A stretch of 64,000 nt of DNA from an uncultured archaeon (GTDB lineage Archaea > Thermoproteota > Bathyarchaeia > 40CM-2-53-6 > CALIRQ01), in the NCBI GenBank assembly GCA_938042195.1, contig CALIRQ010000009.1, forward strand, positions 72,262 through 136,261. Direction: 5' to 3'. Under the pieces are notes generated by a model. That model was not told the DNA's origin. It saw nothing but the letters and a program-made list of their open reading frames with translations, and made no database searches. Shown here in pieces: positions 6,240 through 60,956 of this stretch (its first letter is position 1; the number at the start of each line of letters is the position of its first letter). A program made the translations under genes and the position numbers.

Positions 6240-7268
6240 ATGGGAGATGGAGGCCCATTGAGCAAAAGGGAAGTCAGGAGGATCCAAGTAACCGGCGGCT
6301 CAACCTTTATAGTTTCCTTACCGAAGTGGTGGGCGGAGGATCTGAAACTGAGGCGGGGCGACCTATTGGACATCTTGCCCCAACCGGACCAATCCCTAGT
6401 CATCATCCCAAGGGGCAGATCCGATGAGGGGAAGATGTCCGCCTCTATAGATGCTACCTCCATCGAGGATGCCGAGGGGATCGTGAGGCTCCTAATAGCG
6501 CGCTATCTGGCCGGATACGATACGATAAGCATCCGATTCAGCGGTCATGCGCCGGATTTTGGATATAGAATCAAGGACGCTATAAGGAGGAAGCTCGTCG
6601 GGGTGGAGGTCATGGAGAGTTCCTCCGATCGCATTGTGGTGCAATCCCTCATCGGACATTTGGAATTTCCACTCAAGGCCGCGATAAGCCGCATGTACGT
6701 GCTCTCCTCGATGATGCATAGGGATGCCGTCAGAGCCCTCAAGGAGGTTAATCTTTCGCTAGCCGATGACGTTGAGCAACGGGACGACGACGTGGATCGC
6801 CTATACTTCTTCGTGGTCCGGCAGCTAAAGTCCGCGGTGGTGGATAGATCGCTGATAAAGGAGTTGGGCCTCAGCGGCCCGAAGGATTGCCTCGGGTATA
6901 GGCTTGTGGCGAAGAGCCTCGAGAGGATAGCTGACCATGCCATCAATATAGCGCAGGCGGCCCGCATGCTGAGCGCGCCCGTGGGAAAGGAGCTCATGGG
7001 ATCCATCGAGGAGGTAAGCTCCGTCGCTATGAATGTTTGCGAGTATGCCATGAGGGCCCTAAGCAGGCTCGATGTGGAATTAGCGCAAAGGTCCATATCC
7101 CTAGCCCGGGAGGTTGAGGCGTTCGAGGGGACTTTAACAAAGAGGATCCTAGAATCCGGCGCGACGTCCCAGTCCATGATCGGCCTGAGACTGGCCTTGG
7201 AGAGCATTCGCAGGACGGCCGATTATGGCGCGGATATATCCGAGATCGCCATAAACCTCTCGGCCTAA
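6240..7268 (+). CDS. phoU: Phosphate uptake regulator, PhoU family, with N-terminal SpoVT/AbrB-like swapped-hairpin domain
   Basis: 342 aa with an N-terminal VTGGSTFIVSLPKWWAEDLKLRRGD (AbrB-like) region followed by two PhoU repeats (DDVDRLY..., ERIADHA...). It is divergent from the pst operon. Confidence 0.85.
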   Translation: MGDGGPLSKREVRRIQVTGGSTFIVSLPKWWAEDLKLRRGDLLDILPQPDQSLVIIPRGRSDEGKMSASIDATSIEDAEGIVRLLIARYLAGYDTISIRFSGHAPDFGYRIKDAIRRKLVGVEVMESSSDRIVVQSLIGHLEFPLKAAISRMYVLSSMMHRDAVRALKEVNLSLADDVEQRDDDVDRLYFFVVRQLKSAVVDRSLIKELGLSGPKDCLGYRLVAKSLERIADHAINIAQAARMLSAPVGKELMGSIEEVSSVAMNVCEYAMRALSRLDVELAQRSISLAREVEAFEGTLTKRILESGATSQSMIGLRLALESIRRTADYGADISEIAINLSA

Positions 7269-50164: not shown

Positions 50165-50620
50165 GGACCCCTCGCCAGAATCGCTTATGGCGAATGGATT
50201 ACTTTACCCTTACCCCAGCCGGCGGGCCGGCCCAGGGGTCGGCGGGATCGGATGCGCCTTAAGCGATATAACGCCGTAGCCCCCTATAGGGGGGTGGTCG
50301 CAAATGGGCCGTCTTGAAATCTCGAATGAAATCAAAAGAAATCAAATGAATCGAATCCAGGCCGAAAGGGGCCCATTTTGGGCCCCATCTCGGCGAAAGG
50401 GGCTCGAATAATCGAGGGAAATCAAGCGCCAAAATCAGGGGATGCGGAAGAAAGCCTGCCGCGGCAGGCCGTACAACCGTACGACTGGGGCGGAGGAAAT
50501 CCTCGCCCCTTCGCCGAAAGCTCAATTTGGGAAAGAATGAGGCGTATTATGATTTTTTCGACCTATTTAAACGAAAGTTTTTAAAGCAATAATTCCATAA
50601 CCTTTGAATTAGGGTGTCAA
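50165..50620. promoter_or_regulatory. Divergent promoter / structured regulatory intergenic region (gins-mcm versus gdhA)
   Basis: 456 nt with perfect palindromes CCCCCTATAGGGGGG, GGGGCCCATTTTGGGCCCC and GCCTGCCGCGGCAGGC, five GAAATC repeats, and an AT-rich TATA-like tract tttaaacgaaagtttttaaag about 30 nt before the gdhA start. Confidence 0.4.
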
Positions 50621-51868
50621 TTGAGCGGAAGGGAGTTTTACCGGGATACGCTGGGGAAGATAGATCGCTCGGCCGAGAAGCTTGGGCTCGATAAGGGCGT
50701 AAGGGAGATATTGAGGTATCCCCGCAGGGTTATCGAGGTTTACCTCCCGGTCAGGATGGACGATGGGTCCCTCAAGGTGTTTTGGGGATGCCGAGTTCAG
50801 CATAACTCCGCCAGGGGCCCCTATAAGGGCGGGATAAGGTATCACGAGAGCACAGATCTAGAGGAGGTCAAGGCCCTCGCGGCGCTGATGACGTTCAAAT
50901 CCGCCGTCGCCGATATACCGTTCGGCGGGGCGAAGGGCGGGGTGGCCTGCAACCCAAAGGCCCTCTCGAGGGGGGAGCTGGAGAGGATAACGAGGCGCTA
51001 TACGGCGGCGCTGGCGAACGACATTGGCCCCTACACCGACATCCCGGCTCCAGATGTGAACACGAATCCCCAAACGATGGCTTGGATCGTCGATACCTAT
51101 AGCCAACTCAAGGGGAGGAAGGTCCCGGAGGTTGTGACCGGGAAGCCGATCAGCATAGGGGGATCCCAAGGGAGGGAGGAGGCCACGGGAAGGGGGGTGG
51201 CGATATGCGCCGAGGAAGCGATGAAGTACAAGGGGCTGGATCCCCAATCGGTAACGATCGCCCTACAGGGCTTTGGGAACGTCGGCACCCATGCGGCCCT
51301 GGCGCTCTCGGAGCTGGGCTGTAAGATAATCGCGGTCAGCGATTCGAAGGGTGGCGTTTACGATTCCGAGGGCCTCCCGATCAAGGACTTGATCGAGCAT
51401 AAGCGAAGGACCGGCTCCGTCGTCGGCTTCCGAAACGGCTCCGAGATCGGGAGCGAGGCCGTTTTGGAGGTGGAGTGCGATGTCCTCATACCGGCCGCCC
51501 TCCAGAACGCCATAACAAAGGAGAACGCGAATAGGATAAGGGCCAAGGTCATGGTAGAGGGGGCCAACGGGCCGACGACGACCGAGGCCGATAAGATCTT
51601 GGAGAGAAGGGGCGTATTCGTCGTCCCGGATATATTGGCAAACGCCGGCGGGGTCATAGTCAGCTATTTCGAATGGACGCAGAACCTAAGGAGGGAATAT
51701 TGGGACTTGGAGGAGGTCAGGGGAAAGCTCGAGAAGAGGCTCAAATGCCAATTCAAAAGGGTCTTGGAGACATCAGAGGAGTTCAAGGTCCCGATGAAGG
51801 AGGGGGCCTTCATACTTGGCATTAAGAGGGTCGCCGAGGCGCTGGAGACGCTAGGCCTCTTCCCATGA
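50621..51868 (+). CDS. gdhA: Glutamate dehydrogenase
   Basis: 415 aa with the GGxKGG active-site region (PFGGAKGGV) and a Rossmann GFGNVG. Confidence 0.95.
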   Translation: MSGREFYRDTLGKIDRSAEKLGLDKGVREILRYPRRVIEVYLPVRMDDGSLKVFWGCRVQHNSARGPYKGGIRYHESTDLEEVKALAALMTFKSAVADIPFGGAKGGVACNPKALSRGELERITRRYTAALANDIGPYTDIPAPDVNTNPQTMAWIVDTYSQLKGRKVPEVVTGKPISIGGSQGREEATGRGVAICAEEAMKYKGLDPQSVTIALQGFGNVGTHAALALSELGCKIIAVSDSKGGVYDSEGLPIKDLIEHKRRTGSVVGFRNGSEIGSEAVLEVECDVLIPAALQNAITKENANRIRAKVMVEGANGPTTTEADKILERRGVFVVPDILANAGGVIVSYFEWTQNLRREYWDLEEVRGKLEKRLKCQFKRVLETSEEFKVPMKEGAFILGIKRVAEALETLGLFP

Positions 51869-51987
51869 GCGGGCGCCATCGGCCGAGCTGCCCCGAGGAT
51901 CCCCCAAGGGGCCCAATTGAAATATCGTCGCGGCGGCCCAAAGCCTTATCTTATTATGCCCCATGAGCGGGCCTTAGGGCGATCTAA

Positions 51988-52962
51988 ATGGCCGAGGAGA
52001 GGCATATGATGTGGACGGAGAAGTATAGGCCGAGGACCTTGGATGAGATAAGGGATCAAAGCGAGATCGTTTCGAGGCTAAAGAAGTTCGTAGAGGAGAG
52101 GAGCATGCCGCATTGCCTCTTCGCCGGCCCGCCCGGGACCGGCAAGACGACGGCCGCGCTCTGCTTGGCCCATGACCTCTTCGGCGAGAGGTTCATGGAC
52201 CTGTTCATGGAGCTGAACGCGAGCGATGAGAGGGGGATAGACGTTATCAGGACGACCGTGAAGGAGTTCGCGAGGGCCGCAGCGATCAGCGAGGCCCCTT
52301 TCAAGATATTGGTCCTCGATGAGGCTGATAACATGACGGGTGATGCACAGCAGGCCCTCAGGCGGACGATGGAGAGATATACGGACACGTGCAGGTTCAT
52401 CCTGTGCTGCAATTACTCAAGCAAGATAATCGAGCCGATACAATCCCGCTGCGCCATCTTCCGGTTCTCCCCATTGGGGGAGGGAGACGTAAAGGACTTC
52501 TTGGGGTGGATAGCCAAAAACGAGGGCGTTGATATAACGGATGGGGGCTTGGGGGCGATCGCGAGGATCTCCGAGGGGGATTTGAGGAGGGCGATAAATC
52601 TCCTCCAAGCCGCCTCGTCGCTAAAGGGGGAGATCGACGAGGATTCCATCCATCGCCTCGCCGGCCGGATAGAGCCCAGATATGCGAAGGAGATATTGGA
52701 GTTGGCCATAAAGGGGAACTTCTCCGAATCCAGGAAGAGGCTGAGGAGCCTCCTCCTAGAGAAGGGCCTCTCGCCCTTGGATATCATAAGGCAGATCCAC
52801 GGCGAGATATTCCAGATCGAGCTCCAGGAGAGGGACAAGCTCCTCTTGGCCGAGATGCTCGGGGAAGCGGATTTCAGGATATCCCAGGGGGGGGACCCCG
52901 AGGTCCAGATGAGCGCCTTCTTGGCGAAGCTGGCTTCGCTATCCTCGAGGCCCAGGGGCTGA
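51988..52962 (+). CDS. rfcS: Replication factor C small subunit
   Basis: 324 aa with KYRP, Walker A GPPGTGKT, DEADNMT and an SRC motif. No intein is present. Confidence 0.95.
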   Translation: MAEERHMMWTEKYRPRTLDEIRDQSEIVSRLKKFVEERSMPHCLFAGPPGTGKTTAALCLAHDLFGERFMDLFMELNASDERGIDVIRTTVKEFARAAAISEAPFKILVLDEADNMTGDAQQALRRTMERYTDTCRFILCCNYSSKIIEPIQSRCAIFRFSPLGEGDVKDFLGWIAKNEGVDITDGGLGAIARISEGDLRRAINLLQAASSLKGEIDEDSIHRLAGRIEPRYAKEILELAIKGNFSESRKRLRSLLLEKGLSPLDIIRQIHGEIFQIELQERDKLLLAEMLGEADFRISQGGDPEVQMSAFLAKLASLSSRPRG

Positions 52963-52966
52963 AGCC

Positions 52967-54229
52967 ATGCGGCCCGCCGAGCAATGGGAGGAGAAGTATA
53001 GGCCATCCAGCATCTCGGAGATCGTTGGGAACAAGGAGGCAATCGGGCGGCTGGTCGAATGGGTTAGGAAATGGGGGAAGGACCCAAAGGCCAAGAGGGG
53101 CGCTTTGATATATGGCCCGCCAGGCAGCGGCAAGACCGTCGCGGTCGAGGCGCTGGCGAGGGACCTCGGCTTGGACCTCATAGAGGTGAACGCGAGCGAC
53201 GATCGATCCAAGGGGAAGCTCGAGAGGATGATCGGGGGCGCCGCCAGCGGGATGAGCATACTCGGCAAGGGGAAAATATTATTCCTAGACGAGGTCGATG
53301 GAATGAGCCCATCCATGGATTCGGGCGCAATGGATTACATCGATGAGCTCCTATCCAAGGCCAATTACCCGGTGATCCTCGCCGCCAATAACGCTTGGGA
53401 TCCGAAACTCGGGAGGATAAGGCAAAAGTGCGAGCTGATCGAGTTCAAGAGGATCGGGGTAAGGGAGGCGGTCCCGTTCCTGAAGAGGGTAGCCGAGGAG
53501 GAGGGCATAAGGGCCGATCCGGAGGCCTTGAAGCTCTTGGCGGAGCGGAACAGGGGCGATCTGAGGGCCATGCTGAAGGATTTGCAAACGCTCTCCCATC
53601 CCGGCGGGGCGTTGACGAAGGAGGATGTCCAAGGGGCATCCCGAAGGGATCGAACCGATTTGATATTCAACGTCCTCAAGAACGTATTCTCGGCGAAGAG
53701 CTGCCAATCCGCGAAGATCGCCATCAATGAGGCCGAGGTGGATCACGAGATGCTTTTCGAGTGGATCTACGAGAACGCCCCGCTGTGGCTCTCGGACCCG
53801 GGCGACCTGGCCAATGGTATGGAGGCCCTAGCCAAGGCGGATCTGCTCTTCAACATAGCCAAGAGGGAGCAGAATTGGGGCCTGATCTCCTACGCCATCG
53901 ATTTAATGACCGCTGGGGTCGCCATGGCCAAGGAGAGGTCGAGGGCCGGATGGGTTCCGATGAGGTTCCCCGAGAGGATAGCCCTGATGGCCAAGACCAG
54001 ATCGGAGAGGGCCATTAGGCAAAGGGTCCTCGGGAGGATCGCGAGGCGATGCCACCTCTCGAGGGCATCTGCCAGCGCGAGCGTGTTGCCCTATGTCCTC
54101 GAGATAGCCAGGAACGATTCGAAGGCCTTCAAGGGCCTCGCGGAATGGTTCGGGTTCGATGGCGAAGAGATCGAGTTCCTGAAGTCCCTTTGCGGATCCC
54201 CCGCGCGCCGGGGGTCCAAGGAGGCCTAG
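52967..54229 (+). CDS. rfcL: Replication factor C large subunit
   Basis: 420 aa with KYRP, GPPGSGKT and a DEVD box, immediately downstream of rfcS. Confidence 0.9.
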   Translation: MRPAEQWEEKYRPSSISEIVGNKEAIGRLVEWVRKWGKDPKAKRGALIYGPPGSGKTVAVEALARDLGLDLIEVNASDDRSKGKLERMIGGAASGMSILGKGKILFLDEVDGMSPSMDSGAMDYIDELLSKANYPVILAANNAWDPKLGRIRQKCELIEFKRIGVREAVPFLKRVAEEEGIRADPEALKLLAERNRGDLRAMLKDLQTLSHPGGALTKEDVQGASRRDRTDLIFNVLKNVFSAKSCQSAKIAINEAEVDHEMLFEWIYENAPLWLSDPGDLANGMEALAKADLLFNIAKREQNWGLISYAIDLMTAGVAMAKERSRAGWVPMRFPERIALMAKTRSERAIRQRVLGRIARRCHLSRASASASVLPYVLEIARNDSKAFKGLAEWFGFDGEEIEFLKSLCGSPARRGSKEA

Positions 54230-54741
54230 CCCCTCCTCAAATGCTCCACTATATGCGCCGCTTCCGGTATTATCAGGTTCTCCACGGCCAACTCGACGGC
54301 CTCGGGCGATCCGGGGAGGCAGAATATGACGGATTCTCCTCGGATGCCCGCGGCGGCCCTCGTGAGGAGGGCCGGACTGCCTATCCTCTCGAAGCTGATG
54401 TGCCTGAAGAGCTCCCCGAAGCCGGGTAGGTCCTTCTCGAATAGCTTCGATACGGCCTCTATGGTCACGTCGCCCTTCCCTATGCCCGTCCCCCCAGTAA
54501 TTATGACGACGTCGGCCCCCTTGAGGGCCTCCAATACCGCCCCCAATATGGCCGACTCCTCATCGGGGACCATTGCCCTCATGGTTAGCTCGTGGCCCCT
54601 CCTCCCCATAAGTCTCGCGATCGTTTCGCCGGAGATATCGGGCTCGCCGGAGCCCTTGCTTCGTGAAGTGCTGCATGTTATGACGGCGAATTTCACGCTC
54701 TTCGGCGCCCTCCCCTTATGCGCCTCGGAGGTCTCGCTCAA
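54226..54741 (-). CDS. moaB: Molybdenum cofactor biosynthesis protein MoaB/MogA family
   Basis: 171 aa with GGTGIGKGD and an MoaB/MogA fold signature. Confidence 0.85.
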   Translation of the reverse strand: MSETSEAHKGRAPKSVKFAVITCSTSRSKGSGEPDISGETIARLMGRRGHELTMRAMVPDEESAILGAVLEALKGADVVIITGGTGIGKGDVTIEAVSKLFEKDLPGFGELFRHISFERIGSPALLTRAAAGIRGESVIFCLPGSPEAVELAVENLIIPEAAHIVEHLRRG

Positions 54742-55196
54742 ACGGCCTCCCCCTTCCTCTTCCTCTCCACCCTTATCGCCCTTATCTCCGTGAACGGATA
54801 TTGTCCTTCCTCGTCCTTCTCGTACTTCTTAACCATGTCCCAAACGGTCAGGAGGAACGCGGAAACTGCGGCCAGCGCCTCCATCTCAACGCCCGTCTTG
54901 GACGCCGCCCTCACCCTTGCCCTGACTTCGATGGAATCCTCGTTGAGGCGATGCTCAAGTTGGACGTGTGCGATTTGGATTGGGTGGCAAAGCGGTATCA
55001 TCTGGCTCGCGTTCTTGGCAGCCATTATCGCGGCTATCTCCGCCGCGTATATGGGATCCCCCTTCTCGATCCGCTCGCCCCTTATCAGCTCGATCGTCTC
55101 CCTCCTCATTCGGATCTCGCCGAACGCCACCGCCTCCCTCACTACGTCGCCCTTCCCCGAGATATCGACCATCCTCACCCTGCTCATAGCGCTCAT
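54738..55196 (-). CDS. moaC: Cyclic pyranopterin monophosphate synthase MoaC
   Basis: 152 aa with the conserved MIPLCHP motif. Confidence 0.9.
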   Translation of the reverse strand: MSAMSRVRMVDISGKGDVVREAVAFGEIRMRRETIELIRGERIEKGDPIYAAEIAAIMAAKNASQMIPLCHPIQIAHVQLEHRLNEDSIEVRARVRAASKTGVEMEALAAVSAFLLTVWDMVKKYEKDEEGQYPFTEIRAIRVERKRKGEAV

Positions 55197-55213
55197 ATCC
55201 CCCTCGCGGCCGT

Positions 55214-56356
55214 CTACGAATGCTGGTAATTTATGACTTTATCCCACCTCAGGCCCCTGAGCCCGATGAGGGTCGTCCTCCCCCTGATGCCCGCCCCCGA
55301 GGGCCTGAGCGAGAGCAGGCCAGCGATGGAGAGCCTCCTCGCATATTTCCATAGCTGGGTATGCCGCCTCGGCGCGAGCCCGCGGAGCCCGCAAAGGGCC
55401 AAATACTCTCCCTCAGCATCCCCCATCCTAACCTCTTGGGAGGGGCCCCTCCCCAAAGCCCTCGCCACCGCCTCCAAGAACAGCCTCTCGTGATCGGATA
55501 GATCGCCGATCAAGCATGGGTCCGGCGAGGTCCGAGCTTCATGCAAAGCCCTTTCCGCATGTCCCGCGCCAACCGAGCCAGCCCCTTCGCGCTCGGCCAG
55601 CGCAGCGGCGATCCTCAGGGCCCTGATCGCGAAGCCCGCGTCCCCGAACTCGGAGGAGGCGTCGGCGATCAGATCCAGCGCTTCCCCCTCGATGGCCCCC
55701 TCCCTCAGCGCCATATTAGCCCTTTCGGCCAAGATCGCCTCGAGCTCGGCCTTCGAATATCCCCGAAGCCTCAGGATACCCCTCCTCAGCGCGCTGAGGG
55801 CGCTCCTATCGATCCCCGCCAAGCGGTTCCAATCCCCCAAGGAGAGGATGAGCCCGAGGTCCCGGATGCCAAAAGCCTCCCCGGGCCTGGAGAGAATGTA
55901 GATCGGATCGGCCCCCTCGGCCCAAAGGATCGCTTCCGCATCGTCGAGCGCTAGGATCGGGAAGATGCCGCGGTTCGGGATCTTCCCAATAAGGCCTAGG
56001 AGCTCCTTGGAGGAGCGGCCCCTGAGGCCATCCCCAGCCCCGAAGTAGGTCAAGGCCACTTCGAGGATCTTGAACAGCCTCCCCCTGGCCCTCCAGCAGC
56101 TCACGTAAGCGCATTTTATGGCCCTCCCGCGCTTCAAGCCCTCCGCCTCCATAATCTGCCCGAACCGTTTCAAAAGGGCGGTCTTCCCGCTCCCCCGCGG
56201 CCCGACGAGGACCATCAGCGGGGAGCCGCCGCGCTCAAGGGCGGGCGATAGGAAATGTTGCGCCATATCCCGCAGCTCGCGATCCCTGCCGATGAGATTC
56301 CCCGGAACGTATTCCGGCGAGAGGGGGAACGGATCCCTCAGGATCCCTTCGCCCAT
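55214..56356 (-). CDS. orc1: Orc1/Cdc6 replication initiator
   Basis: The start is placed at MGEGILRDPF (ATG 56356). Walker A is GPRGSGKT and Walker B is LALDDAE, with a C-terminal winged helix. The 116 codons upstream in the tracked ORF are Gly/Arg-rich junk that overlaps the next gene. Confidence 0.85.
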   Translation of the reverse strand: MGEGILRDPFPLSPEYVPGNLIGRDRELRDMAQHFLSPALERGGSPLMVLVGPRGSGKTALLKRFGQIMEAEGLKRGRAIKCAYVSCWRARGRLFKILEVALTYFGAGDGLRGRSSKELLGLIGKIPNRGIFPILALDDAEAILWAEGADPIYILSRPGEAFGIRDLGLILSLGDWNRLAGIDRSALSALRRGILRLRGYSKAELEAILAERANMALREGAIEGEALDLIADASSEFGDAGFAIRALRIAAALAEREGAGSVGAGHAERALHEARTSPDPCLIGDLSDHERLFLEAVARALGRGPSQEVRMGDAEGEYLALCGLRGLAPRRHTQLWKYARRLSIAGLLSLRPSGAGIRGRTTLIGLRGLRWDKVINYQHS

Positions 56357-57393
56357 CGGCCCCCGCCCCGCGATGCCGCCTCGTATAGCTCTATAACCTC
56401 GTATATGGAGTCGCGCGGCGGAGATCGGATCTCGATCAAGTCCCCGCGCGCATCGGTCAACTTGACCCCGAAGGACCCGTCCCTCATCTCTCCTATCTTG
56501 GTCGCCATGATCCCCTTCCCCCTGAGCGATCCCAAAAGCCCCTCCTCGGCCTTCGGATCGACCGAGATCAGCAGGCTCCCGGAGCCGAGCAATTTCATCG
56601 GATCGATGCCCAAGGATGCGCAAATGGCCTTGGTCTCCTCCGCGATCGGCACCCTCGCGGCCTCTATAAGGGCTCCCAGCCCCGATGCGGCCGCCATCTC
56701 CCAAACCCCGCCCAATATCCCGCCCTCTGTCGGGTCGTGGAGCGCATGGACCCCCTCGACCCTCGCGGCCACTAGCGCCTCCTCGACGACGCTTATCCTC
56801 CGGAGGAACCCCTTGGAGCGCTCGATGAGGTCCCCAGGCACCTCGAGGATATCGGGATAGCTGATCGAGATCACGGCCGTGCCCTCTATCCCGGCCGTCT
56901 TGGTCATGATTATCCTATCCCCGGGCTTGGCGTTCCTCGTTACCAAATATTTATCCTTGGGGCATTCCCCGGCCATCATTCCAACCACGATCGGGGCCCT
57001 TATGCCCGGCGCCACCTCCGTATGGCCGCCTACGACGGCCACCCCGAGCTCCTTGGCGGCCCGATCCACTTGGCCCATTATCTCCCTCAATTCGCCCTCG
57101 CCGGACCCCTCCGGCAGGAGGACGGCGCATAGGAACCATTTCGGGATCGCGCCCCTTGTCGCGACATCGTTTGCGTTTATGTGGACCGATAACCATCCGA
57201 GGTCCCTGCTGGCGGCAGTTATCGGATCCATGGCCAAGACCAGCAGCGCATCCCCCATATCTATGACGGCCGCGTCCTCGCCTATACCCGGGCCTAATAG
57301 GACCCTTGGATCCGGCCTCCCGGTGAAGCCGAAGACCAGCTCCAGCAGCCTCTCGGGGGGCACCTTCCCGGTTTTGAATCCGCCCAACCCCAA
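56338..57393 (-). CDS. AIR synthase-related (PurM-like superfamily) protein
   Basis: 351 aa with GEDAAVI and a VGGHTE PurM-fold signature. It lacks the C-terminal PRIC of HypE. Confidence 0.7.
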   Translation of the reverse strand: MGLGGFKTGKVPPERLLELVFGFTGRPDPRVLLGPGIGEDAAVIDMGDALLVLAMDPITAASRDLGWLSVHINANDVATRGAIPKWFLCAVLLPEGSGEGELREIMGQVDRAAKELGVAVVGGHTEVAPGIRAPIVVGMMAGECPKDKYLVTRNAKPGDRIIMTKTAGIEGTAVISISYPDILEVPGDLIERSKGFLRRISVVEEALVAARVEGVHALHDPTEGGILGGVWEMAAASGLGALIEAARVPIAEETKAICASLGIDPMKLLGSGSLLISVDPKAEEGLLGSLRGKGIMATKIGEMRDGSFGVKLTDARGDLIEIRSPPRDSIYEVIELYEAASRGGGRWAKGS

Positions 57394-57720
57394 GCCACTT
57401 TTCCGATGGATCCGGAGTCCAGCTTAAAAAGGCTGGCCCGTCTGATTCGCTAGCGCGATGACCATATGGAGCGCCCATGACCGTTTAGCGAATGCTGCCG
57501 GCAGGGGAGCGCTTCGGCAAGAACCCCTCCTGGCCCCGGACGGTTACAACTATCGGCTCCACCAGGCCGAGGCGGAGCCCGGAAGGCATTGGTTCATCCA
57601 GAGGGTGAGGGGGGAAGTGAAGGCGGGGCTGATGAAAAAGATGATAATTTTATGTTATTTAACACAAAAATCAGGAGGGTACGTTTTGCTGGGTTATTGC
57701 ATGGGCGAGGTCGGCCATCC
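57394..57720. ncRNA. Candidate structured ncRNA (SRP-RNA-like motif); unverified
   Basis: GC-rich 330-nt intergenic segment with many helices: GUCCAGC-UUAAAAAG-GCUGGC, a GCUUCGGC UUCG tetraloop hairpin and CUGCCGGCAGG. It also has CCAGGCC...CCCGGAAGG, reminiscent of the SRP RNA helix-8 GGAA region. No ORF of coding quality is present. Confidence 0.25.
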
Positions 57721-57953
57721 CATGCCTCGCCATGCTTCGCCTCTTGGCAATCCCCGTTAAGGCCCATCTCGGGACGCCGATCACCTGCTACCGATCTTTT
57801 CAAATGCATCCAGAATGGATATAAGAGACCATTGCTCAAAAGTGAGTCCCTCAGACCGGCGCTGAGGAAAGCCCAACCTCCCAATCCTTAAGTTGACGAC
57901 CTTCATAACTATGGGAAAAGCTTAAGTCCAGCATCAACTCGAGGAGAAATCCG

Positions 57954-58572
57954 ATGAATAATATTAATGAGCTGCTCCAAAATATCTGTCTTGATTCACT
58001 AAATGCTGGGTGGTCAAGTGAAAGAGAAAAGCTAAATCCTATTGCCGAATTTATGGAAGAAGGTTGTGGAAGCATTAAAATCGACCTCCCAATTAAATTT
58101 TATAAAAGCAAGAAACATGACGTGCCTACCAATATTATCTTAAACATAATAGCATTGCATCATAGGGATTACTTTAGAGCAATTGCGGTATTGTGTTCAT
58201 GTGCAAGGCTGTAAGCTGGGGCTTGAGGCATTTCTTAAGAAAATTAAGGAACTTGATAGTGGATTAATAAGGATAGTTAAAGGAAATTTACGCAGACTTA
58301 TCCGCCATATTGAAAGAAGGGACCTTAAGCGCCGAGATAGGATTTCCATCTGGAAATCATGGCGGAGTGGCGTAATGCTTTCAGCAGAAAAATCGGCCAT
58401 TAGACGTAAGTGCACTCCAGTCATTAAAAAAGTAAAGGTCGAACTGGTTAAAGACGAAATAGGCAAAATGCAAATAAGAGATCTTGAGGCTACACGTCCA
58501 TTAGGTTTATTTGGTTTAATGCTTCAAGAAAGTCCAATAAGTTCGGCGAATGTCACAAAAGAAAGCCTTTAG
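57954..58572 (+). pseudogene. Frameshifted or two-piece ORF in a low-GC island; HEPN-like Rx4H motif (possible Abi/toxin-like gene)
   Basis: Two ORFs (57954-58214 and 58183-58572) overlap by 32 nt in adjacent frames. Both are Lys/Ile/Asn-rich and match the local approximately 38% GC. The second piece contains RRLIRHIERRD. Confidence 0.35.
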
Positions 58573-58631
58573 AAGCTGTCTTAAGTTGTTTCCACAAACG
58601 CTTATATTTTCCCACTTTTGTACGAGGCCTC

Positions 58632-58717
58632 GTGGGCTTTATCGCTAGCCTCTCGACGAAATCGGCCAAGGAGACCGTGGAAGGAACTATGCTGTGGGCT
58701 TTATCGCTAGCCTCTCG
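58632..58717. repeat. CRISPR-like mini-array: two identical 24-bp direct repeats around a 38-bp spacer
   Basis: GTGGGCTTTATCGCTAGCCTCTCG occurs at 58632-58655 and 58694-58717 with a 62-bp period. An AT-rich leader-like 60 bp lies upstream, and a perfect palindrome ATCGGGCCGGCCCGAT (58722-58737) lies downstream. Confidence 0.4.
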
Positions 58718-60215
58718 GGGCATCGGGCCGGCCCGATTCCAACAGCGCGGCGTTGAGCCGCCCGATGAAGCCGGTGAAGCGTTCCTCAGGAACCCTGGCG
58801 CCGGCCGATGCCCTCGCATAGACAGCCGCCTTCCCTAGGGGAACGGCATATCGATGACGTATGCCACAAGCCCTCGATCCTGATGCACTCCCCGATCGAT
58901 CGGATTCAGCTCCTCTTCCCTCCTGGCGCTCTCCAGGGCCGATTCGATGAGCCCCGCGTAGGCGCTGGGCGACTCTGGCGGCGAGGTGGGAAACTACGCC
59001 CCACTTGAAATCGTAATCCCGCTTCCTACCCTCGATCCCTTGGACCAATACGCTCGTTTCGAAGTATGCGGACCTCTTATCCCAATCGCAAAGCGATCGG
59101 CCACGGCGCCGAGGATCGCCACTGGCCCCCTCCCCTGGAAGAATCGATACGCCAGCTCCGAGGCCGATGAGCGGATATCGTGGACGACCCTAGCGTGGAT
59201 CTCGTCATCTGATAACCCCTGGGAAGGGGATAGGGATCGATATAGACCGCATCGCCCTTCTCGCCAAGCCTCGAATCTCATCCAAGGCAGCCGATAGCTC
59301 GCTCGGGCGCGGATATATCGCATATTATGACCGAATCGCCCCTCATCCGCGCTTCTCAAATCCCCAGGAAGGCCCACCGGATGCGTGAAGAGGACCGAGG
59401 CGCCGGGGTTGGCGGCCAGCGCGAGCGCCTCGGCGCATAGCCCATCAGTCGCCGTGCGTGAACATCCTCGCGGCCATATCGAAAACCCGTTTTGGATCCC
59501 GAGGATCCGATGCGCCGAGAGATAGATAAGGATTCCACGAGCATGGAGGTGGGGCGCACGGCGCAAAGGTTCGCGGGGGCCGATGCCCGGGCCGGGTTCA
59601 GGGCGATTCTATATCCTTGAACTTCGTCGTCCCACGCAGGCTGAACCTTATTGTGAACCTGCGGGGGGATTCGCTGTCCGGGGAGCGGTAGCTCCCCTCC
59701 GCCTCCCATAGATCGCCAACTCGGCGGATCCTCCTGAACTCCACGCCGTAGCCCTTCGGGCAAACCCTTTGGATCAACCTGATGGACCTCTCCCTGACCT
59801 CCCGCTCGGTTATCCCCGGCCTTTCGAAGCGCAGGATCCCTCCACCCCGATCGGCCGTTCCGCGGCCTTGCCTTGTAAACCTTTCCAAAATGGATGCCCC
59901 ATCGGCGCGATCGCGCAATGCCCTTTCTCGCCATTCGCTCGCGCCTGAGGAGGATGTAGGAGATGGCCAGCCAGATCGAGGATCCAATAGCTGAAGCCTC
60001 TGGCCAAATAGCTTGAGGGGGGTCCGCCTGGCCCCCGCATCGGCCCCTTCGGATGGCGCGGCCGAGGCCTATGATCGATTGAAAGCCGTTCATAGACCTT
60101 AAGCATAAAATAGTGCGGTTGATATCGAAAGACCATCACCGAGTGCTCATCGACCCTGGGGCTCCCATGGGCGGCCATTGCCATCAGAGCCGCGCTCGCG
60201 AGCACGGTGGCGTAA

Positions 60216-60307
60216 TGCGGCCGCCGGGATTCGAACCCGGGTCACTGGCGCTCCGCCCGATCAAAGTTGGCAGGCCAGCGTCTTGGACCAGGCTGGACTA
60301 CGGCCGC
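60216..60307 (-). tRNA. tRNA-Gly(GCC) with a 17-18 nt intron adjacent to the anticodon loop
   Basis: Reverse complement: GCGGCCG-UA-GUCC...AGAC-G-CUGGC-CUGCCA[intron ACUUUGAUCGGGCGGAGC]-GCCAG-UGAC-CCGGG-UUCGAAU-CCCGG-CGGCCGC-A. CCA is not encoded. Confidence 0.85.
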
Positions 60308-60578
60308 ATCGAGGGGATTTCACTGCGCTCTTGGCTTTAAAATTTTGTTGGTGCCGAGGGTGTGACTTCCACCGGCTCATCGCCGGCTTTGAACACACGA
60401 CGCCCCGGTATCGGATCCGGGCGGATCTTCAGCCGGGTGCTCTCCATCGCCCCTGTGGGGGTCAGGCTGAGCTCTCGAGGGCCCTCGTCGCCGGCCTACC
60501 TCGGCTTCCCTCGGCGACCGCTTAGGTCGAATCGAGGGGGAAATAAAAAATCTTCCGCCATGGTCGCCCATGCCCGGC

Positions 60579-60956
60579 CTATGGGGGCTCAGCCTTGTTC
60601 ATCTCGATCATTATCGTATCGTTTATGCTGGGCTTGCCCAGCCTTTCGTATTCCTCCTCCGTTATCACCATATCCACCTTCGCATCCCATTGCCCCCCGA
60701 GCGAGATGGGGCCGCCGATGACGAGCCCGCCCGGGAAGGCCGCCTCGAAGGCCTGTTGGATCCTGGCGGCTATCTCCTCAGCCACCCTTTGCTCCTCCGT
60801 CCTCCCGATCGGCTCTATCCTGGCCTTCAGGCCCCTTCTGATGAGCACCATCCTGACCATGCCGCCCCCCAAGCCCATGACTTGGTGGACCCTCAGCTCC
60901 ATCAGCAACGCGGCGAACACCCGGAATGGCTTGGGAGGGGCCCTATTAAAATCCAC
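60579..60956 (-). CDS. Hypothetical small protein in a Mo-cofactor gene neighbourhood
   Basis: 125 aa with coding-like composition and no recognisable motif. Confidence 0.4.
   Translation of the reverse strand: MDFNRAPPKPFRVFAALLMELRVHQVMGLGGGMVRMVLIRRGLKARIEPIGRTEEQRVAEEIAARIQQAFEAAFPGGLVIGGPISLGGQWDAKVDMVITEEEYERLGKPSINDTIMIEMNKAEPP

Follow-up and report, generated by a model that had tools for sequence, protein, structure and literature searches.

How a chromosome comes to hold a single pair of short repeats around an unrelated insert, with the dimensions of a CRISPR unit, is the question raised by one locus in an uncultured archaeon of the Bathyarchaeia. The window, by which we mean the whole 64-kb stretch of contig CALIRQ010000009.1 (assembly GCA_938042195.1) that was analysed, carries the 24-nucleotide (nt) sequence GTGGGCTTTATCGCTAGCCTCTCG in two exact copies on the plus strand, repeat 1 at 58632-58655 and repeat 2 at 58694-58717, which agree at 24/24 positions and start 62 nt apart. 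Between them lies a 38-nt spacer, ACGAAATCGGCCAAGGAGACCGTGGAAGGAACTATGCT (58656-58693, plus strand; 53% guanine-cytosine (GC) content), an unrelated insert that had no match anywhere we searched. A preliminary description of this DNA, made from the letters alone, had recorded the two perfect direct repeats and the 38-bp spacer, correctly as it turned out, and had read them as an archaeal type I/III CRISPR unit. We tentatively favour, with a confidence just short of even, the view that the unit is the product of a single Cas1-Cas2-type integration, either an orphan or island-borne mini-array or an off-target 'neo-CRISPR'.

The repeat pair and its resemblance to an integration product

The repeat pair is far beyond chance: two copies of the 24-mer appeared in 0 of 100 dinucleotide-preserving shuffles of the window, which ruled out a chance origin. 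No third copy was found at up to three mismatches on either strand of the window, and the next-best ungapped candidates, scattered through it, agreed at just 16-17 of the 24 positions. The edges of the repeats are sharp, since the 40 nt outside the two copies show only 23% and 25% identity on the respective sides, the level of random sequence; the flanks thus diverge right outside the repeats, as the preliminary description had noticed. An independent Logan assembly agrees with the window assembly over 58539-58740, so neither the unit nor the AT-rich DNA to its left is the artefact of a single assembler.

As a base-rate control, we screened about 1.0 Mb of unrelated loci for exact repeats, 20 nt or longer, at spacings of 40-100 nt and obtained six places. 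Three of these (L028, L032 and L061) had multiple repeat segments at a single period, one (L066) was a longer degenerate tandem duplication of 74 nt, one (L067) had its repeats inside long open reading frames (ORFs), and in the last (L076) the flanks were about 35% identical. A decayed tandem duplication was ruled out for the unit under study, whose repeat flanks are at random identity, unlike those of L066.

When 24 bp are duplicated exactly, with sharp edges, on both sides of 38 bp of unrelated DNA, the pattern is the signature of a target-site duplication. To our knowledge, one class of enzyme alone, the CRISPR integrase Cas1-Cas2, duplicates targets of 24-37 bp around inserts of 30-45 bp, and the target duplications made by transposases are much shorter. 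Repeats of 24 nt and spacers of 38 nt also fit the type I-A arrays of Thermoproteota. We rejected a transposon or insertion sequence, for which the 38-bp insert is far too short and which would have left terminal inverted repeats that the insert does not have, and also a transposon end with multiple transposase-binding sites, as no inverted copy of the repeat occurs in the window.

If a Cas1-Cas2-type integrase was responsible, a 38-bp DNA fragment would have been inserted by staggered attack on both borders of a 24-bp target, and gap repair would then have copied that target exactly. The target would have lain at a foreign island's edge, beside AT-rich DNA with a promoter, a type of flank favoured by such integrases, and the outcome would be a stand-alone mini-array of leader, repeat, spacer and repeat. 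It could be either an off-target 'neo-CRISPR', in which an ordinary local sequence became the repeat, or a mini-array imported with the island. A TATA-like box would start the transcript at about the first base of repeat 1, and any processing or use of the RNA would depend on any Cas proteins that the rest of the genome may encode. The perfect identity of the two copies suggests a recent event, and the unit is most likely a recent by-product with little or no function.

Off-target integration of this kind has precedents. The Cas1-Cas2 of Pyrococcus furiosus performs full-site integration in vitro at non-CRISPR sites that have G or C one repeat-length apart (PMC6698737), and the 24-mer begins and finishes with G. 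Off-target integration in Escherichia coli spawns new arrays, with circumstantial evidence for two other species, according to the account of Nivala, Shipman and Church 2018 in PMC7054753 and in the preprint bioRxiv 10.1101/148544. A favoured non-CRISPR site has been described as an inverted repeat beside an AT-rich promoter, and the type I-A system of S. islandicus used a 39-bp prespacer (both PMC9456107); here the repeat contains an inverted repeat of 4-5 bp and abuts AT-rich DNA with a TATA-like box. The unit shows what is expected of a neo-CRISPR, namely an exact repeat-length duplication of ordinary DNA with sharp edges around a spacer-length insert, and it further resembles the known cases in having G at both borders, an AT-rich or promoter-like flank on one side, and a repeat absent from canonical arrays. 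It differs from them in that the known cases come from overexpressed or purified enzymes (E. coli, P. furiosus), whereas here no gene for such enzymes was found over the range covered, and no pre-insertion allele either.

The host class offers precedents for the imported variant as well. Type I or III cas loci were found in more than one third of high-quality metagenome-assembled genomes (MAGs) of Bathyarchaeia, with I-A in hot-spring lineages, and a two-repeat, one-spacer mini-array without an identifiable target is known from a virus of this class (PMC10848311, PMC10541130). Mini-CRISPR arrays borne by viruses and other mobile genetic elements were treated by Medvedeva et al. 2019, as cited in PMC10848311, and among the viruses of Bathyarchaeia, Fuxivirus bears one with two repeats around a single spacer and Chiyouvirus has mini-arrays, of which array 1 is defined by the identity of its repeat to that of a host array. 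The unit shares with these the host class and the form of a minimal array, here beside foreign-looking AT-rich orphan genes, and with Fuxivirus a spacer for which no protospacer was found; it differs in that the island beside it yielded neither a viral hallmark nor a cas gene. As to carriage by a virus or mobile element, the unit adjoins an AT-rich island of orphan genes that the relatives do not have, but PHROG, Pfam and PADLOC gave no match there and no att duplication was found.

Promoter-like flank and isolation from CRISPR systems

The flank upstream of the unit is leader-like, as had been proposed. Repeat 1 is preceded by 59 nt (58573-58631, plus strand) that start after the stop codon of ORF 58183-58572 and have about 41% GC versus 57-64% in the neighbouring 1-kb bins, and the shift in composition coincides with repeat 1, in that the AT-rich DNA ends exactly where repeat 1 starts. 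A TATA-like box, TTATATTT, is predicted at 58602-58609 on the plus strand and ends 22 nt before repeat 1. Its spacing resembles that of the promoters of the two transfer RNA (tRNA) genes of the window, in which ATTTATAAA and AATTTTAAAG end 24 and 27 nt before the mature 5' end, so a transcription start would fit the first bases of repeat 1, and by this spacing we predict one at about 58632-58635. Downstream of the unit on the plus strand, no oligo-T terminator was present.

Other features of the immediate surroundings proved less informative. A perfect 16-bp palindrome, ATCGGGCCGGCCCGAT, does lie at 58722-58737, adjacent to the unit and 4 nt after repeat 2, but it is neither special nor, as had been suggested, terminator-like for an archaeon: the window holds six perfect 16-bp palindromes, for which chance suffices, and no T-run was seen after this one, so we gave it no weight. 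The ORF at 58632-58838, which overlaps the unit, had been dismissed as a mere translation of the repeats, and we agree, as it has no host-like coding signal and no Pfam match in any plus-strand frame. A protein-coding repeat was likewise rejected: with a period of 62 nt, the second copy is read in another frame than the first, a coding signal is absent, and none of the six frames of 58540-60215 gave a Pfam match. As a separate observation, the minus-strand frame from 59566 to 58553, which crosses both repeats, is open except for two TAG codons (58994-58996 and about 58835-58837).

The repeat can fold into a 5-bp stem that includes one G-U pair and closes an 8-nt loop (-6.3 kcal/mol), but as a Cas6-type structure this is hardly distinctive, with a z-score of just -1.7 and an equally good fold for 11 of 200 shuffled sequences. 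Among archaeal repeats of types I-A and III, many have no structure, and for this reason a repeat stem does not discriminate here. A structured RNA was rejected, as the unit folds on both strands no more stably than its shuffles (z = +0.6 to +1.9), the repeat hairpin is weak and no Rfam family matches.

Judged as a CRISPR array, the unit has identical direct repeats in the 23-47-bp range (24/24) and a spacer of similar length (38 nt), but an array would have at least three repeats, and only two copies exist in the window at up to three mismatches. The 64-kb window contains no CRISPR array or other multi-copy short-period repeat. Scans of genome, metagenome and viral collections for the repeat, which covered exact matches, found the 24-mer 0 times in a set with a single genome for each GTDB species, in the metagenome contigs of JGI and in IMG/VR, and its halves likewise placed it in no array there. 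A relaxed pattern, in which the 3' half had to occur twice at a distance of 42-62 nt, gave nine metagenome matches, of which eight were short-period or compound repeats and the ninth (L088) was a 45-nt exact repeat at 69-nt spacing; GTGGGCTTTATC preceded the match in 0 of the 9. Neither of the two half-repeat two-copy patterns matched a viral contig of IMG/VR, and neither half of the repeat, in either orientation, was present in those supplements of PMC10848311 that were searched for Bathyarchaeia repeat sequences. The absence of the repeat from every array searched is accounted for by an off-target origin, which predicts exactly that.

The spacer was no more informative about a target. Against the rest of the window, its longest shared k-mer was 11 nt, at four scattered sites, which we take to be the level of chance. 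In IMG/VR, its two exact 19-mer halves and three wobble-tolerant 38-mer patterns (phases) had 0 matches, and blastn against phage and plasmid collections returned only matches with E >= 1. Thus, the spacer matched nothing but itself. As far as exact-match scans go, two of the three observations that the preliminary description had said would undo its reading, a repeat found in no bona fide array and a spacer that matches only itself (the third being a repeat incapable of a Cas6-type structure), are what we found.

No cas gene was detected from the first ORF of the window, about 57 kb to the left of the unit, to about 11 kb to its right, a search that comprised Pfam scans of about 50 window ORFs and the gene calls past the right end of the window on L081, a Logan contig from the same genome (99.98% identical) that reaches about 5.9 kb beyond that end and encodes housekeeping genes only. 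PADLOC gave 0 matches for six local ORFs. An Rfam 15 scan of 57300-60700 by E-value returned a tRNA and two weak matches that overlap it, both below the gathering score, and no CRISPR-DR family for the repeat.

Several of these results weigh against an origin by CRISPR integration. Besides the missing cas genes and the missing CRISPR-DR family, the single spacer has no protospacer in IMG/VR, the phage or plasmid collections or the window, and the repeat sequence does not have the ATTGAAAG/C-type 3' terminus of archaeal type I/III repeats. A/T octamers are expected anyway in AT-rich DNA, so that a promoter-like TTATATTT is unsurprising there. No pre-insertion allele with a single 24-mer occurred in the searched collections, and the reconstructed pre-insertion sequence matched none of the fetched loci; the closest relatives do not have the region around the unit at all. 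The unit is therefore an orphan in every respect testable here. Its geometry fits an integrase product, for which no better mechanism came to light, and this part of the type I/III reading stands; a canonical unit, with further copies, cas genes, an array, an Rfam family and a target, is not what the scans found over the range covered. It looks like one isolated, unconserved repeat-spacer-repeat, a curiosity and not a working system.

The strain-specific neighbourhood and competing explanations

The window is an ordinary segment of a Bathyarchaeia chromosome, with genes for phosphate transport, HypF, Lhr- and Hel308-type helicases, SMC/ScpB, MCM, GINS, glutamate dehydrogenase (GDH), the small and large subunits of RFC (RFC-S and RFC-L), Cdc6/Orc1, MobB and an aminotransferase, along with two tRNAs. 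A look-up of a 424-aa form of the aminotransferase returned no record. Two paralogous genes with MazE/AbrB-like and PhoU domains lie about 63 kb apart (6240-7268, plus strand, and L081 1-239). The closest relatives of the AIR-synthase-like (AIRS-like) neighbour gene are in two Bathyarchaeia MAGs, L001 (88% amino acid identity) and L002 (82%), and synteny with both ends at 57400-57450. From there, about 2.8 kb (57450-60215), up to the tRNA at 60216-60307, have no counterpart in L001 or L002.

These 2.8 kb show hardly any host-like coding signal. A codon-usage log-odds score trained on 30 confident window genes, for which the gene mean was 0.45, was mostly negative over 57400-60200 and reached at most 0.22 across all six frames, with the exception of 59650-59800 on the minus strand. 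This exception reflects a small real gene at 59598-59888 (minus strand) for a conserved hypothetical protein of 96 aa (P0001), which has no Pfam, PHROG or PADLOC family and whose homologue (P0002; 67% identity) lies on an unrelated contig of 906 bp labelled 'fossil.metagenome' in ENA (L082 157-438). With stops masked, no frame of 57400-57960 or 58540-60215 had a Pfam match, the sole entry being a sub-threshold ParB_N (E = 0.21), and PHROGs and PADLOC gave no match for the ORFs of the region. The tRNA gene at its right end (minus strand) has its anticodon region interrupted by 19 inserted nt, presumably an intron; Rfam scored it at 54.8 bits and ARAGORN missed it. In L002, a different intron-bearing tRNA-like sequence, also uncalled by ARAGORN, lies upstream of the AIRS gene. 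An integrated element targeted to the tRNA at 60216-60307 and bounded by att repeats was rejected, since we found no duplication of this tRNA, the best match being a 12-mer with E = 0.41.

Within the 2.8 kb, an AT-rich island spans 57950-58620 on the plus strand, with 34-45% GC in 150-nt windows versus 57-64% in the neighbouring 1-kb bins and about 58% for the genome, and the unit sits at the GC-rich edge of this island. The island is probably foreign DNA and has no counterpart in L001 or L002. It contains two overlapping orphan ORFs on the plus strand, one of 86 aa (57954-58214) and one of 129 aa (58183-58572), the second of which is, by our own estimate, too long for a chance ORF in such AT-rich DNA; the two could represent a single frameshifted gene from a mobile element since lost. 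The 129-aa product is rich in Arg and Lys and predicted to be helical. Neither ORF matched Pfam, PHROG or PADLOC, a word-indexed search of 5.8e9 clustered proteins yielded no homologue, and look-ups of ORF 57954-58211 and ORF 58183-58569 returned no record. When 1.8e9 representatives were searched exhaustively with HMMER, the only match was to a protein of 3944 aa, over 21 short stretches, and we take it to be spurious, and a single-sequence AlphaFold2 model was unusable (predicted local distance difference test score, 39.6).

The chromosome to the left of this region is rearranged. A 6.8-kb block, 50579-57400, which carries the genes for GDH, RFC-S, RFC-L, MoCF_biosynth- and MoaC-domain proteins, Cdc6/Orc1 and the AIRS-like protein, is inverted relative to L002, where MCM-GINS is followed by a G/C palindrome and its AT-rich stretch, then by a tRNA with an intron, then by AIRS-Cdc6. 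L001 has a third arrangement, in which the region upstream of AIRS adjoins this palindrome and the AT-rich element in reversed orientation. The Logan contig L092, from the same run, spans exactly 50591-57414 with 4 mismatches in 6.8 kb and so ends at both breakpoints of the inverted block, and L081 ends at 58539, 93 nt to the left of repeat 1 and inside the AT-rich island. That contigs end at the synteny breakpoints and near repeat 1 suggests structural polymorphism in the sampled population; the 6.8-kb block may be invertible or polymorphic in it, and the end of L081 may come from an allelic branch in the assembly graph or from low coverage of AT-rich DNA. Separately, a candidate replication-origin element lies between GINS and GDH (50270-50360) and consists of a palindrome, CCCCCTATAGGGGG (50280), followed by GAAATCAAAA-type repeats (50328-50350) in an AT-rich stretch; in both L001 and L002, its palindrome and AT-rich stretch recur beside the junctions of the rearrangement. 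This is the likelier origin-like element, to which the 24-mer bears no resemblance, and we rejected the idea that the 24-mer is itself an origin element or origin recognition box (ORB) near cdc6.

This setting gives substance to a serious if unlikely alternative, in which the unit is a functionless scar made without Cas proteins, its duplication arising from the rearrangements or insertions that built the 2.8-kb strain-specific region, for example during repair at an island junction. The unit sits exactly at the transition from AT-rich to GC-rich DNA within 57450-60215, a region that relatives L001 and L002 do not share and that has almost no host-like coding signal and no family match in any frame; an independently made assembly from this population is interrupted at 57414 and at 58539, and therefore the neighbourhood is structurally unstable or polymorphic; and the adjacent 6.8-kb block is inverted relative to L002. 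What this explanation leaves unaccounted for is the cleanness of the product. Apart from Cas proteins, we are aware of nothing that would routinely leave a clean duplication of 24 bp around an unrelated insert of 38 bp: the duplications made by transposases are shorter and the insert is too short for an insertion sequence and is not bounded by terminal inverted repeats, a tRNA-derived att duplication was not found, and the tandem duplication among our controls (L066) is a longer, degenerate unit unlike this one.

The position of the repeats at the predicted transcription start fits another proposal, which we consider quite unlikely, that the 24-mers are protein-binding sites of the foreign island, operator, centromere-like or iteron-like, about six helical turns apart and overlapping the start site. 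The 62-bp spacing is near 6 x 10.5 bp, and a possible binder is encoded just upstream, namely the basic, Arg/Lys-rich and predicted helical 129-aa orphan. Such repeats occur together with AT-rich DNA in the origins and partition sites of plasmids and viruses, and the unit resembles iterons and operators in having direct repeats of about 20-24 bp beside AT-rich DNA at a near-integral helical-turn spacing. It differs from them in that there are two copies only, perfect over 24 nt and with sharp edges, where binding sites are usually shorter and imperfect, and in a spacing far larger than that of typical iterons. Moreover, no rep, par, initiator or regulator family was detected nearby, the downstream plus strand has no gene with a coding signal that such sites could serve, and the 129-aa ORF has no homologues and therefore provides no evidence of co-occurrence.

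Finally, a CRISPR-derived regulatory RNA of the CreA type, the antitoxin RNA of CreTA in Haloarcula type I-B systems, which would bind Cascade and repress a nearby toxin gene or cas promoter through partial spacer complementarity, had been put forward from the architecture of two repeats around one spacer-like segment, to which we can add a predicted dedicated promoter, but is very improbable: the unit is neither in nor beside a cas operon over the range covered (about 57 kb to the left and 11 kb to the right), its spacer finds no partial target, matching at most 11 nt at four scattered sites in the window, no candidate small toxin was identified next to it, and its repeats are identical, whereas those of CreA are degenerate.

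What the unit would mean for the origin of CRISPR arrays

Cas1-Cas2-type integration thus remains our tentatively preferred explanation for a unit whose geometry is striking and which is single and unconserved, with a function that, as read from its sequence, is conjectural. In its fullest form, this explanation would make the locus a natural and recent 'birth of a CRISPR locus', in which a Bathyarchaeia Cas1-Cas2 inserted a fragment off-target beside an AT-rich promoter on newly acquired foreign DNA and thereby created a transcribed unit with a repeat outside the known families; we hold this fuller version to be unlikely, and if it were true, the event would be preserved in a wild genome as it stood right after it had happened. 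Orphan two-repeat units and off-target integration are already known, and the unit would be a new natural case from an archaeon. If it is instead a Cas-independent scar or a pair of binding sites, it serves as a warning example for the two-repeat 'arrays' reported by CRISPR finders. The origin of new CRISPR arrays has been argued mostly from off-target integration in the laboratory, in vivo for E. coli and in vitro for P. furiosus, and a clean natural example in an uncultivated archaeal lineage, if this is one, would provide a concrete test case for how arrays begin.

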